DNA of 36,418 bases, taken from Candidatus Nomurabacteria bacterium (GTDB lineage: Bacteria; Patescibacteriota; Minisyncoccia; Phycocordibacterales; UBA9973). A program made the translations under genes and the position numbers. This document shows, piece after piece, positions 1,760 through 35,999 of the stretch (position 1 is the stretch's first letter; each line of letters starts with the position of its first letter). The notes beneath the pieces are model-generated. The model searched no databases. It had not been told where the DNA came from and was given only the letters and a program-made list of their open reading frames with translations. The stretch lies in the NCBI GenBank assembly GCA_943356375.1, contig CALRET010000003.1, forward strand, positions 1-36,418, read 5' to 3'.

Positions 1760-1797
1760 AGGTGCTAGGTTCTAGGTTGTAGGTTCTAGAAAAATAC
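1760..1797. repeat. 7-bp tandem array (AGGTTCT type x4) followed by AGAAAAATAC
   Basis: aggtgct aggttct aggttgt aggttct agaaaaatac. Confidence 0.85.
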
Positions 1798-1841
1798 CTA
1801 TATAAATTAAGGGTTAATTTCAATTCACTATTTACAAATTA

Positions 1842-1874
1842 TGTCCCTTCGGAGACATCGCTCGAAGGGGGACA
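1842..1874. repeat. GC-rich REP-like hairpin within AT-rich periodic DNA
   Basis: tgtcccttcg...cgaagggggaca inverted repeat. Confidence 0.6.
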
Positions 1875-1963
1875 AGTGAATTTATAAATTTTAAAATGAT
1901 AAATTTATAATTAATTTGTAACTTGTACTTTTAACTTTAAAATTGTCTCATGTGTCTCCAGGT

Positions 1964-1992
1964 TTGCAAAATAATTGCTTTCTTGCTATGCT
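1964..1992 (+). promoter_or_regulatory. leaderless sigma70 promoter for secG
   Basis: TTGCAA, 17 bp, TATGCT (TG extended), with ATG 6 nt downstream at 1999. Confidence 0.7.
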
Positions 1993-1998
1993 TTCCTC

Positions 1999-2229
1999 AT
2001 GACTGCAATAACTACTGTATTGCCTTATATACAAATCATTCTCTCGATACTCCTTTGTCTAAGTATTTTACTTCAGCAATCTGGCGCAGGATTAGGTGGT
2101 GCCATGGGAGGAGGTGACGGCAATACAACATTTCACACACGTCGCGGTTTTGAAAAACTGCTTTTCCGATCTACGATACTTTTCGCGGTGTTATTTGTTA
2201 TTTCTGCAATTCTCGCAGTCATACTCTAA
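1999..2229 (+). CDS. secG: preprotein translocase subunit SecG
   Basis: Two TM helices around LLQQSGAGLGGAMGG..TRRGFEK. Start moved to ATG 1999. Confidence 0.92.
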   Translation: MTAITTVLPYIQIILSILLCLSILLQQSGAGLGGAMGGGDGNTTFHTRRGFEKLLFRSTILFAVLFVISAILAVIL

Positions 2230-2307
2230 TTCTATAACCAAAAACTACATACTCTCTTTTACTACACGTGTGAAGCACGGAATAGTATTTCTGAAGTATC
2301 TATATCT

Positions 2308-33308: not shown

Positions 33309-33317
33309 GTGTGAATA

Positions 33318-34037
33318 TTATGGAGTCAATGATTGTATCTGTGGTCCTCCTGGTAAGTCAACCACTGTGTCACCTGATCCTCCACCTGAAGGAACACCTC
33401 CACCACCAGGACCCCCTAAACTACCTGATCCCCCTGGACCACCACCTCCTGGTGGAAGAACTATTACTGGATTTGGATATGTTGCTCTTACTGAACGTTC
33501 AATAGATTTTGGAGATAAAACAGGTTGAAATGAACCATCACCTGTGCATTGAGCAGTAAAACCACGAGAAGTGATACGGGTATGTGATACAGATACACCA
33601 TTAACATCTATTGGAAAATTTTTGTTGACAGAAACAACCGCACAAGTATCTAGTGTTGGCGCAAACTCAAACATATACATGTCCAGTGATGGTGTACTAA
33701 ATGAAATTGTTTGATCATTACAATAAATTGGATTTAATTGTCCTGTATAAAAGACATTAGTATTATTCCCTATGTCCCAATACAATGCACATTCAGCTCC
33801 AGTATCAGCTGCGAAAAAAGCGATATTTGCATCTCTGGCTTCAGATGATAAGACCAATTCTTTATAAGTTACATTTGCAATACCAATCGCCATAGTAAGA
33901 ATAATACCGGCAATAAGAACAGTGAACAGAGCAACGAAACCACCTGAAGAGCTAATAGCTAGTAGCTTACAGCTTGTAGGTAAAGAATCCTGAACTCCGA
34001 CTTTGTTGTTTTTACTTTTTACCATTTGCTGTGTCAT
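33318..34037 (-). CDS. type IV minor pilin, PilX-like, with Gly/Pro-rich tail
   Basis: GF-VALF hydrophobic helix lacking E5; AFFAADTGAECALY. Confidence 0.8.
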   Translation of the reverse strand: MTQQMVKSKNNKVGVQDSLPTSCKLLAISSSGGFVALFTVLIAGIILTMAIGIANVTYKELVLSSEARDANIAFFAADTGAECALYWDIGNNTNVFYTGQLNPIYCNDQTISFSTPSLDMYMFEFAPTLDTCAVVSVNKNFPIDVNGVSVSHTRITSRGFTAQCTGDGSFQPVLSPKSIERSVRATYPNPVIVLPPGGGGPGGSGSLGGPGGGGVPSGGGSGDTVVDLPGGPQIQSLTP

Positions 34038-34038
34038 A

Positions 34039-34599
34039 TTATAGTATCCAATTAAATAAATTCTCTTCTGCTTTTACTGAATACACAGTGGTACTCGACC
34101 CCTGTGTCCAAGAAACTTCAGATATAATATTCAATTCGTCAGCAGAGAGATCTTGTGCTCTGAGTGTACGGTAAAATTTTGTCGCAGAAAAATTAGAATC
34201 TTGAATATACCCTTTTCCACCCGGACTATCATCATAGTAAACTAAACAATCAATAGGACTCACGCATGAAGTAAACGGCGGCGTACCACCATTCATCCAA
34301 AAAGTATAATCCAAACTACAACCATCCTGACAAGTAGGAATCATTAGATTAACAAAATCTGTCCACCCGGTATTACCCATAACAGTGGTATCACGAATAT
34401 TCCTCGTTAACTCAATTCCCTCTTGGGCAAGGTACGATGCAATAAGACGATTTTTTGCATACTGAACATCTCCTACTCCATGACTACTGATAACAATAAT
34501 ACCAAGGATTGAGAACGAGAAAATAAAAATCGCCACCAGTGTCTCAATAAGTGTGAATCCAGAATTTTTACTTTTTAGTTTTAACTTTTTACTTTGCAT
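34039..34599 (-). CDS. type IV minor pilin, PilV-like
   Basis: GFTLIETLVA prepilin motif; A.YLAQEGIE..RNIRD. Confidence 0.88.
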   Translation of the reverse strand: MQSKKLKLKSKNSGFTLIETLVAIFIFSFSILGIIVISSHGVGDVQYAKNRLIASYLAQEGIELTRNIRDTTVMGNTGWTDFVNLMIPTCQDGCSLDYTFWMNGGTPPFTSCVSPIDCLVYYDDSPGGKGYIQDSNFSATKFYRTLRAQDLSADELNIISEVSWTQGSSTTVYSVKAEENLFNWIL

Positions 34600-34604
34600 A
34601 TATA

Positions 34605-35273
34605 TTATTCATCTACTTGTCTCTGAGATATTATCGTCTCGAGCGCAAAGGGTGTCACCACTCCTCTATAGTCTATCACCCCTGCGAGACGAATTCGAAC
34701 GTACGGTTGACGAGCTGGACTTTCAGGAGTCGCAGAGCCAATAACTATAAAACCAGACTTTGCCATATCTATATGTACTTCTGTTGGAAGTAGATTATAA
34801 AAGTCATCGTTACTTGACGTCAGTCCAAATTCTGATTTCTGCAATATTCCATCATCACTTGTACCAGTTATTCTATAGACATATTCATCTCCTATGCCCG
34901 TAACAGGATCCCAATCTCCATCCACTTGTTCAAATGAAAACTGATAGGTTAAAACTGAACAATCGCCACCACTAGTTCCACAATTATACGCACTACCTAG
35001 TCTCGCATTACGCGCAATATCTTCCATAGCAAAACTGATCGTATCTATAACAGAACGAAGTTTTTGATTTTTCTTGTGTACTGATGTGACAGTAAGCACT
35101 GCACCGATCCCAATTAAAATAATAATCGTAAATAATCCTGCGGAAATCATCATTTCGATTAGCGTGAATCCAGCTGAGCAGGTTCTAGGTTCTAGGTGCG
35201 AGGTTCTAGAAGAATTCCCAATTCCGGATTTCAATTTGTATTTTGTAAATGGTAATTTAAAATTGTATTTCAT
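34605..35273 (-). CDS. type IV minor pilin, PilW-like
   Basis: GFTLIEMMIS prepilin motif. Confidence 0.87.
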   Translation of the reverse strand: MKYNFKLPFTKYKLKSGIGNSSRTSHLEPRTCSAGFTLIEMMISAGLFTIIILIGIGAVLTVTSVHKKNQKLRSVIDTISFAMEDIARNARLGSAYNCGTSGGDCSVLTYQFSFEQVDGDWDPVTGIGDEYVYRITGTSDDGILQKSEFGLTSSNDDFYNLLPTEVHIDMAKSGFIVIGSATPESPARQPYVRIRLAGVIDYRGVVTPFALETIISQRQVDE

Positions 35274-35276
35274 ATT

Positions 35277-35999
35277 TTATTGTGCGCTTATTTGTCCGAT
35301 TCGTGAGACTGAGACAGTACGTTCTTGTCCACGTGAAGACCTCAGTGTTATTTTAGCACTAATAAGTGTTCCAATATTAGGATCATTAACAGCAAAAGAT
35401 GCCTCTAGTTTCGGTCTCGTAAAAATAATATCAAGCGATTGGAAGGTTGATATAGAAGCAAGATGGGGACCATTTGCATCTATTACCTCTATTCCAGAAA
35501 TAATGAATTCATCTGGAAGTGACAAGACATCAATACACTCATTGTCTGAATAATGAACGACATCACAATATGAAGTAGAATTATCATATTCGCCAATAGT
35601 TGCCATATCAAAATCAGCAAAATAAACAAACTGAGTGTTTTCAGTAATATCAAAATGAACTCCATATGCAGGTTTAAGTCCATTAGCAAAATCTGTTGGT
35701 GTAAATGTATTACTCCCTTGGGTCACTTGTGGCGGCATACGCCCAGAGCTTCCAGAAAGTTGTGCTTGTCGGATTTGCAATGCAACATCTTGCACAAGAT
35801 TTTGCAATTTCACATTTGAACTAAAATCAGTAAAATTAAACATCACAACACTAGAGAGGGCTGCAAAAATAGAAATGACGATGATGAGCTCGACGAAAGT
35901 AAAACCAGATGTTCGTGAAGCTTGAAGCTTGAAGCTTGAAGCAGAAAAATCCTTAGTCCCAACATTTTTCTTTTTACTTTTTTCTTTTTGCTGTGTCAT
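35277..35999 (-). CDS. type IV minor pilin, FimT/FimU/GspH-like
   Basis: GFTFVELIIV motif, IRQAQ, C-terminal GQI; start moved to ATG 35999. Confidence 0.87.
   Translation of the reverse strand: MTQQKEKSKKKNVGTKDFSASSFKLQASRTSGFTFVELIIVISIFAALSSVVMFNFTDFSSNVKLQNLVQDVALQIRQAQLSGSSGRMPPQVTQGSNTFTPTDFANGLKPAYGVHFDITENTQFVYFADFDMATIGEYDNSTSYCDVVHYSDNECIDVLSLPDEFIISGIEVIDANGPHLASISTFQSLDIIFTRPKLEASFAVNDPNIGTLISAKITLRSSRGQERTVSVSRIGQISAQ

Follow-up and report, generated by a model that had tools for sequence, protein, structure and literature searches.

The stretch analysed here is a 36,418-nucleotide sequence from a Candidatus Nomurabacteria bacterium (assembly GCA_943356375.1, contig CALRET010000003.1, positions 1 to 36,418; hereafter the window), along which short tandem arrays of heptamers are dispersed in spacers and inside genes. 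The window corresponds to contig C3 of genome G000 (657 kb in 49 contigs, 38% G+C), which is 91% complete; other G numbers denote compared genomes and L122 the closest metagenome relative. A sequence-only reading had listed 8 of these arrays, and all 8 lie where it had placed them, but its list missed several others, chiefly the oppositely oriented partner arm at 18204-18234 and also those at 34565-34595, 35965-35989 and 1912-1937. With a probability of roughly 60%, we interpret the arrays as the repeat arms of small stem-loop cassettes built like the intervening sequences (IVS) of rRNA that bear an open reading frame (ORF), whose gene would encode a protein of the PF05635 family (IVP). Throughout, the TAG strand is the one on which an array is read with TAG cores and the CTA strand is its complement.

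At the rRNA end of the window, the + strand at 1760-1797 carries a solo arm made of CAG and 4 TAG cores of the CTAG/GGTTC type followed by the flank AAAAATAC. It is CTA-sense to the 16S rRNA gene, which Rfam places at 11-1466 on the minus strand, and with some 300 nt between them it is the array nearest to rRNA, on the upstream side of that gene. Directly downstream of the arm, about 270 nt upstream of the 16S 5' end, lies a near-consensus, sigma-70-like TTGACT-N17-TATACT (1720-1750), the one clear promoter-like site among the array surroundings inspected. The CCUCC tail of the 16S rRNA was not evident by eye in the last bases of the contig. Beyond a hairpin from this arm, and upstream of secG, A/T-rich arrays occupy 1879-1937, one with period 8 (AATTTATA) and one with period 7 (TAACTTG, 1912-1937); they could represent a decayed partner arm whose units belong to a different type, and their membership of the family is uncertain. 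The window also contains an inverted pair between the divergent ftsE gene and a gene containing an RpoA C-terminal domain. Its left arm (18140-18177, + strand) has CAG and 4 TAG cores of the GTAG/ATAG type with the same flank, AAAAATAC; on the minus strand, where the array is CTA-sense, 12 nt separate its end from the start codon of ftsE at 18133. Its right arm (18204-18234) has 5 TAG cores on the minus strand; the + strand gene at 18309-19679, to which it is CTA-sense, begins 74 nt further on. The pair (18136-18240) folds as an imperfect hairpin (z -2.2 and -2.9), and no partner arm was detected for the solo arms of the window.

The remaining arrays of the window are translated. In gatA, which lies on the minus strand, the array at 29744-29776 (+ strand) has 5 TAG cores in GTTTG/GCTTG units and is read CTA-sense as QATSYKLQ in a hypervariable loop; GatA of G000 exceeds most of 28 orthologues by 3 to 4 residues and the L122 protein by 4. 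The first ligA array (31486-31520, + strand) consists of AGCTTGN heptads with a degenerate core and encodes the linker before the BRCT domain, with a length change of 0 relative to orthologues, and the second (31631-31658, + strand) consists of AACTTGA/AGCTTGA heptads and adds about 3 residues. L122 LigA, 73% identical to that of G000, has another heptad array (CCAAGNN) about 8 codons upstream of the first G000 site, in the same variable segment and again with no length change. These arrays had been taken for in-frame insertions, but alignments with orthologues (26 plus L122 for LigA, 28 plus L122 for GatA) rule out a clean insertion at either protein, the net change being 0 to +4 residues, and the arrays appear instead to replace variable linker or loop sequence.

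Four pilin-like proteins of the window have leaders that contain arrays, all upstream of GFTLIE-type motifs. The array at 33950-33990 (+ strand), of AGCTNNT heptads with the flank AAAGAATCC, is translated in a long leader just before the hydrophobic N-terminal segment. The one at 34565-34595 (+ strand), with A-rich TTTTTAC heptads (AAAAGTA in the coding sense), makes up most of the 13-residue leader of a pilin with an N_methyl motif, although its membership of the TAG family is uncertain. The AGGTTCT arm of CTAG type at 35180-35217 (+ strand), with the flank AGAAGAATTC, is read as RTSHLEPRT within a pilin leader, and one of its units has GCG instead of CT, which leaves one reading frame without TAG. 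Finally, at 35916-35989 (+ strand), 4 copies of TGAAGCT, the flank AGAAAAATCC and TTTTTCT heptads (35965-35989) encode most of a pilin leader (QQKEKSKKKNVGTKDFSASSFKLQAS). Where these leaders hold arrays, four pilin-like genes of L122 (676-4100) hold an in-frame palindrome of about 70 nt (CCCGGTAGT...ACTACCGGG), and two L122 paralogues without the palindrome have leaders of 7-12 residues. Judging from this comparison, the pilin leaders are the only coding sites where arrays look like true insertions.

To measure the strength of the heptameric signal, we combined several scans. Tandem Repeats Finder (TRF) returned 21 rows in the window, 10 of them with period 7 and including 6 of the 8 listed arrays; the other 2 (18140-18167 and 33950-33977) reach 16/21 self-matches at lag 7. 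Over the whole of G000, 95 of 371 TRF rows have period 7, the runner-up being period 9 with 60 rows. A self-match scan over 21 positions with a cut-off of 16/21 at a given lag found 49 windows at lag 7 and 0 to 10 at each other lag from 4 to 15, except for lag 14 (28 windows), a harmonic of 7; three Markov-2 simulations gave 0 to 2 at lag 7. The unit consists of an invariant TAG, recurring at 7-base intervals, and four further bases that differ even inside one array. When TAG or CTA chains at a fixed period were collected, with one absent core tolerated and at least 4 cores required, G000 had 100 chains at period 7, and not one at any of periods 4-6 or 8-12. In agreement with the 4 to 5 units seen in the window, chain sizes at period 7 peak at 4 cores (71) and 5 cores (28), next to 1 chain of 7 cores and 38 of 3 cores.

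Merging the 100 chains leaves 79 arrays, and in 21 of these CTAG is read whichever strand is taken. Spacers on the TAG strand are rich in G and T, a composition taken from a logo partly off register for CTAG-type arrays and used loosely. By a rule-based classifier, some of whose assignments were changed by eye so that the counts are approximate, about 29 arrays are of the CTAG type (GTTC, TTTC, GGAC, GTGC), about 28 of the GTAG/ATAG type (CTTG, CTGG, TTTG, ATAG), about 13 of the GGTA/CGTA type and about 5 of the GCNN type. One array on contig C1 (18537-18560) consists of 4 exact CCCTAAA units (TTTAGGG on the other strand) and ends 5 nt before a start codon; its likeness to the plant telomere unit is coincidental. 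The two ends of an array differ: CAG in the TAG register opens 11 of the 79, four mostly A bases followed by TAC close 13, and 24 arrays have AATAC in the 16 nt that follow their last TAG on the 3' side, versus 2 on the 5' side, about 3% being expected from its intergenic frequency. The shared flank motif noticed in the window is recovered genome-wide, and the translated frames of the window arrays vary as noticed; the arrays form a family at the nucleotide level, with constrained copy number and polarity. Nothing was seen that points to the flank as a primer for the writing of repeats. Rich in A, the flank frequently continues into the A-tract of a terminator or directly into an IVP start codon. 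Inspected by eye as a promoter, the GTATTTT flank showed no consistent -10/-35 elements around several arrays.

Next, we placed the arrays relative to genes, using a simple longest-ORF call (768 ORFs, 89% coding). Intergenic positions account for 73 of the 79 arrays, and the 6 in coding sequence are all translated from the CTA strand, since a TAG at 7-base intervals closes every frame of the other strand. For 36 intergenic arrays, the CTA strand runs in the sense of the gene that follows; the distance to its ATG is 4-6 nt for 15 of them and no more than 15 nt for 25, and the proteins encoded downstream include what we take, from N-termini recognised without a family search, to be ribosomal proteins S8 and L20. 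In 36 others the TAG strand is in the sense of the preceding gene; 29 start at most 15 nt from its stop codon, the first TAG is itself the stop in 8, and the A-rich flank mostly leads into a terminator-like hairpin. The orientation shared by the arrays first listed in the window had suggested a tie to transcription, but the 36:36 split shows that orientation is independent of transcription and follows an inside-out polarity of the element itself, with the CAG end facing outward to the gene boundary and the A-rich end inward, to the spacer centre or the terminator.

This polarity is also evident where arrays are neighbours. Among the 15 pairs less than 450 nt apart, 13 have a TAG arm followed by a CTA arm, none the reverse order and 2 the same orientation. 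Mean arm pairing energy was -27.6 kcal/mol for cognate arms, -20.1 for non-cognate arms and -11.1 for shuffled ones, and the paired arms of the ribosomal-protein operon fold as hairpins with z of -3.9 and -6.1. Target-site duplications were sought by eye at pair ends, where none was consistent; no systematic search was made, and transposase families were not searched. RNase III (rnc) is encoded in G000. On contig C10 (3751-3836 and 3298-3693) a paired-arm hairpin immediately precedes the RNase III gene, with 9 nt between the element and the ATG; in Escherichia coli, rnc is autoregulated via a stem in its own leader.

The proximity of many arrays to start codons raised the idea that they replace the Shine-Dalgarno (SD) sequence. 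An SD-like core at -20 to -4 was found in 27 of 602 G000 genes of at least 100 aa, and G is depleted upstream of starts (6-13% at -12 to -1), a context that indicates SD-independent initiation in this genome. Such a core is missing from all 25 genes that are preceded by an array at a distance of up to 15 nt, but as SD-like cores are scarce genome-wide, a missing one beside an array is uninformative, and we dropped the idea of a replacement.

We then searched for the four-helix-bundle proteins to which heptamer arrays had been linked in the sequence-only reading, and the link held. G000 has three PF05635 matches (C1:38781-39167, C26:9102-9296 and C10:7817-8131), and arms bracket IVP genes. The C1 gene (minus strand, 128 aa) lies between arrays 38770-38800 and 39182-39212: its ATG comes 14 nt after the TAG arm, and the CTA arm contains its final residues and its stop codon. 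The next gene starts 6 nt past that arm. In C26, the ATG comes 5 nt after five TAG heptads (array 9038-9069) and the gene is cut by the contig end. Extending the comparison to 30 IVP loci from 10 related genomes, we found an upstream TAG chain of at least 3 cores in 13 (5 cores in 8 loci, 4 in 2, 6 in 1 and 3 in 2) and a downstream CTA chain of 4-7 in 11. The other loci mostly have arms of different units (GGTATAT, AGTATNN, GAATNAG, GCTTNNN or A-rich), and in some IVP clades the arms have period 8 (TAGTCNNN) or 8-9 (AAAGTTNNN), again with 4-5 units (G004:C1:94700-95100, G004:C1:149500-149900, G027:C9 and G021:C4), which suggests that the number of units, and not arm length, is conserved.

Arm units follow the IVP protein tree, with a CTAG clade, a clade with AAAGTT arms of period 8-9 (support 100/99) and an A-rich clade (100/100); co-descent of gene and arms predicts such covariation, so it is no proof of binding. 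By unit type, about 57 of the 79 G000 arrays belong with the arms of one or other of the two kinds that flank IVP genes in this genome. The C1 protein matches PDB entries 2gsc (E 2.6e-19) and 2rld, its closest solved homologues, each with 5 chains per entry, and all 28 IVPs examined are basic (pI 8.9-9.8, median 9.2). The earlier statement that IVS-type proteins are homopentamers agrees with these entries and with PMC4990558, which describes Xanthomonas S23p as a homopentameric toroid.

The distribution of arrays among relatives was analysed at two scales. Of 31 relatives, every one from a different genus, 15 had zero pattern hits and 6 were array-rich (105, 105, 106, 93, 100 and 41 hits); PF05635 was present in all 6 relatives with at least 40 hits and above the cut-off in none of the 15 with zero. 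Between these extremes, G030 has 7 hits and no IVP, and G006 has two IVP genes and 2 hits. In a class-wide sample of 251 genomes, 161 have PF05635, namely 34 of the 38 genomes with at least 20 hits versus 127 of the remaining 213, and the 89 zero-hit genomes divide into 36 IVP-positive and 53 IVP-negative. This corresponds to an odds ratio of about 6-7, with p-values overstated because the genomes are related. As a control, the pattern read backwards gave 676 hits in this sample, versus 2338 forward.

The conserved S17-L14-L24-L5 operon bears on gain. Array-free relatives mostly have spacers of 1-26 nt there, apart from a few in which a single gap reaches 79-237 nt while containing no array. 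In G000, spacers of 93 and 86 nt hold paired arms; G018 has spacers of 42, 98 and 103 nt with arms of a unit type other than that of G000, G021 has spacers of 41-62 nt, and the array-rich G004, G009 and G016 have short ones. We conclude that the arrays are lineage-specific additions and that some operon junctions are colonised repeatedly. Within the population the arrays seem stable: in contigs from three DNA runs of one study, those at 18140-18234, 31486, 31631, 33950 and 34565 show no indel or letter change. Contigs drop rare variants and low-frequency variation could escape, which makes this a weak test, but there is no sign of unit-number instability, and we set aside slippage or phase variation of the contingency-locus kind on this weak ground. 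A look for RNA runs covering 17300-19300 of the window returned none. Contigs of runs X1 and X2 show 19 other letters for 59 bases at 26801-26861, within the ORF at 26715-27026, a replacement that is a population variant.

The interpretation that best accounts for these results is that the arrays are arms of IVS-like cassettes. The data establish the array family and its polarity, tie it to IVP genes, show that paired arms have the potential to fold as hairpins and reveal lineage-specific gain. A full cassette would comprise about 5 TAG-core heptads, a start codon, the IVP gene and about 4-7 CTA-core heptads, with IVP as a PF05635, Avd-like, basic four-helix bundle that is pentameric in solved homologues. 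Most G000 copies would have lost the gene or never had it, being reduced to paired arms around a short centre or terminator hairpin, or to single arms, and for the window arrays the best-supported reading is such gene-less arms. The cassettes would occupy very short intergenic spacers, so that their outer ends touch stop and start codons, and a few would sit in frame in tolerant coding segments. The IVP pentamer may bind an arm as single-stranded RNA or DNA, and paired arms may form RNase III-type stems in transcripts. That each subunit takes one heptad is an attractive inference from the five-core mode at IVP starts and the pentameric homologues. A bolder version, which we consider rather unlikely, makes the IVP pentamer both a sequence-reading ring, which would take one heptad of single-stranded nucleic acid per subunit, recognise the fixed trinucleotide and tolerate the spacer, and the agent that copies arms to new places, at times overwriting short coding stretches without changing their length, so that the heptamer repeats of several phyla (STRR, TAACTGA, TAG-N4) would be the footprint of one family; if true, this would be a new kind of protein-guided, transposase-free sequence spreading.

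Several observations weigh against the cassette interpretation. Array-rich genomes without a detected PF05635 gene exist, both among the relatives (G023, 20 hits) and in the class sample (G068, G069, G084 and G268), and 36 IVP-positive genomes have no TAG-type array, although other units are possible there; kinship among the compared genomes also inflates independence in the association statistics. Within G000, one of the three IVP genes, that of C10, has no arms, and 2 of the 4 unit types have no resident cognate IVP gene, in a genome that is 91% complete. In the window, none of the 46 ORFs matches PF05635, so its arrays can be at most gene-less arms, and the LigA length shift of 0-3 residues is unexplained by simple insertion. 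Kin genes with kin arms may mean common descent of whole cassettes and are no demonstration of binding. Mobility would also be left without a mechanism, as RVT_1 (PF00078) was not found in G000 and no consistent target-site duplication was seen by eye. Finally, the regular spacing of start-proximal arrays, 15 of 36 ending 4-6 nt before the ATG, could instead mean a role in translation.

This last point leads to the main rival, a post-transcriptional network in which the arrays are cis-acting RNA sites read by IVP or by a general binder such as S1 or a cold-shock protein, with CUA-sense arrays before starts tuning initiation and UAG-sense arrays between stop and terminator affecting termination or stability. 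We regard it as doubtful, though it is not exclusive of the cassette reading. The 36 arrays that are CTA-sense upstream of a gene suit it, as do the 29 of 36 stop-proximal arrays within 15 nt of a stop codon, mostly followed by a terminator-like hairpin, and the largest class of TAACTGA repeats in Beggiatoaceae is likewise reported to end 1 nt upstream of the start codon (PMC4679880). The lack of an SD-like core in all 25 genes with a close array would fit as well, but low SD use throughout the genome makes it nothing special. Likewise, the S17/L14 and L24/L5 junctions are occupied in both G000 and G018, but with different unit types, and they are array-free in most relatives, including array-rich G004, G009 and G016. 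An even orientation relative to transcription, arrays translated inside LigA, GatA and pilin leaders, and a patchy distribution among genera are further difficulties for a regulatory network, and the cassette reading is preferred.

Two simpler explanations leave more unexplained. The arrays might be neutral or selfish tandem repeats, like the short tandemly repeated repetitive (STRR) sequences of cyanobacteria, that arose by slippage and unit shuffling, with IVP genes merely sharing the same permissive spots. Units of one type do come from a small vocabulary shuffled in order among copies, the arrays sit in spacers and variable protein loops, and four array-rich genomes have no detected IVP; yet copy number is narrow, at 4-5 cores without a slippage-like spread, the contigs of the three DNA runs show no array indel, and the four spacer bases differ inside an array while TAG is kept, which is not expected from slippage. 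With an arm topology fixed at 13 to 0 and arms placed exactly at IVP gene ends in many genomes, we find this explanation improbable. Least credible of all, in our view, is that the arrays are DNA-level signals, for instance for DNA uptake or for a nucleoid protein or other protein that binds double-strand DNA. The uptake sequences of certain competent bacteria often form inverted pairs at terminators, which recalls the inverted pairs around terminator-like hairpins here, and the genome encodes type IV pilin-like proteins. A 7-bp period is mismatched to the helical repeat of DNA, however; about 92% of the arrays (73/79) are intergenic, whereas known uptake sequences frequently lie in genes; a single genome contains several unit types; and the link to IVP gene ends would be left without explanation.

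If right, the cassette reading suggests a nucleic-acid partner for the IVP protein. To our knowledge, PF05635/S23p proteins have had no known role outside diversity-generating retroelements (DGR) since they were found in rRNA intervening sequences, and we know of no established origin for dispersed bacterial heptamer repeats. In G000, roughly 80 arrays share a fixed core and an arm topology that is likewise fixed, and the modal five cores at the IVP start match a pentamer. The arrays also matter for the annotation of ultra-small bacteria, where they supply stop codons, lie at the expected place of ribosome-binding regions and are translated in essential enzymes and pilin leaders. As for the sequence-only reading as a whole, its array family tied to IVP genes stands in outline; transcription-linked orientation, clean insertions and flank-primed writing are not supported in the form given.

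Apart from the arrays, the window contains a free-standing LAGLIDADG_3 ORF (27036-27716, minus strand) that adjoins tRNA-Met (27791-27865) and a small GIY-YIG ORF (12420-12683, minus strand), both of which are possible remnants of homing endonucleases.

The arrays share features with several known systems. The RNA site of HutP is UAG-N4-UAG-N4-UAG beside a terminator hairpin, read by a ring-shaped oligomer, and the arrays resemble it in their UAG triplets spaced by four arbitrary bases next to a terminator hairpin but differ in being about 80 sites genome-wide in both orientations. A HutP-like reader was rejected, as PF09021 was not found in the 91%-complete G000 while a Bacillus subtilis control was detected. 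Rickettsia palindromic elements and the miniature inverted-repeat transposable (MITE) and repetitive extragenic palindromic (REP) elements are short, gene-less palindromes dispersed in a small genome, some of them in frame in genes. Gene-less palindromic copies, some in frame in protein genes, are found here as well; unlike those elements, the arms are internally periodic and no target-site duplication was seen by eye. The PF05635 protein resembles the Avd of DGR, and bAvd (PDB 4DWL) is a pentameric barrel, but the IVP genes here stand alone between repeat arms, and as the reverse transcriptase domain RVT_1 was not found in G000, they cannot be taken for the Avd genes of a DGR. No template or variable repeats are known beside them, although no search was aimed at such repeats. 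According to PMC10053308, PF05635 is Avd-like and uncharacterised, and Avd is a basic pentameric four-helix-bundle protein that works with nucleic acid.

Other heptamer repeats offer a further parallel. Cyanobacterial STRR are dispersed heptamer repeats. Directly repeated TAACTGA has been described in Beggiatoaceae, Cyanobacteria and Bacteroidetes, for which MacGregor proposed a cis-acting post-transcriptional role (MacGregor 2015, PMC4679880). Period 7, dispersal and an intergenic location (73 of 79 here) are shared with both, but unit identity is not. As described in that paper, the TAACTGA repeats are, like the arrays here, intergenic sets of 2-6 heptamers mostly just upstream of SD-less starts, ribosomal-protein operons included, stop all three frames on one strand and have a patchy distribution that suggests horizontal spread. 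They differ in being exact copies of one heptamer. In the present family TAG is the sole invariant part of a unit whose other four bases change; moreover, one array in two looks toward a stop codon, and inverted pairs are numerous. The text of PMC4679880 does not contain the words four-helix, IVS, S23 or intervening sequence. In the literature more widely, where most subscription journals and supplements fell outside the search, we found no paper that ties dispersed heptamer arrays in general to IVP genes.

The system after which the cassette reading is modelled is the ORF-bearing rRNA IVS. PMC4990558 describes, for the IVS of Coxiella burnetii, heptameric repeats that immediately precede the S23p start, the first of which is where RNase III cleaves; ORF-bearing 23S rRNA IVS are also cited there for Leptospira, Xanthomonas and Brucella, the IVS stem is an RNase III substrate, and the IVS is regarded as selfish. 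IVP ORFs also occur in rRNA insertions of the Candidate Phyla Radiation (CPR), as stated in bioRxiv 10.1101/2024.02.27.582315. The cassettes differ from IVS in location, between or inside protein-coding genes and not in rRNA helices; in both arms being heptads with a fixed trinucleotide core and variable spacers; and in the excess of gene-less over gene-bearing copies (79 arrays versus 3 IVP genes in G000). Where the IVS stem is cut by RNase III, processing of the arms here is putative, by analogy and given the rnc gene of G000. As in IVS, a small PF05635 four-helix-bundle gene sits in the loop of a stem made by terminal inverted repeats, and as in Coxiella, heptads stand right before the IVP start (five TAG heptads in C26, TAG chains of at least 3 in 13 of 30 loci). 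To the Coxiella IVS, the only published precedent that we found, the present analysis adds the TAG-N4 unit, the polarity rule and the five-core mode, together with a class-level association that has exceptions, the replacement-like arrays of LigA and the stability of arrays across samples.

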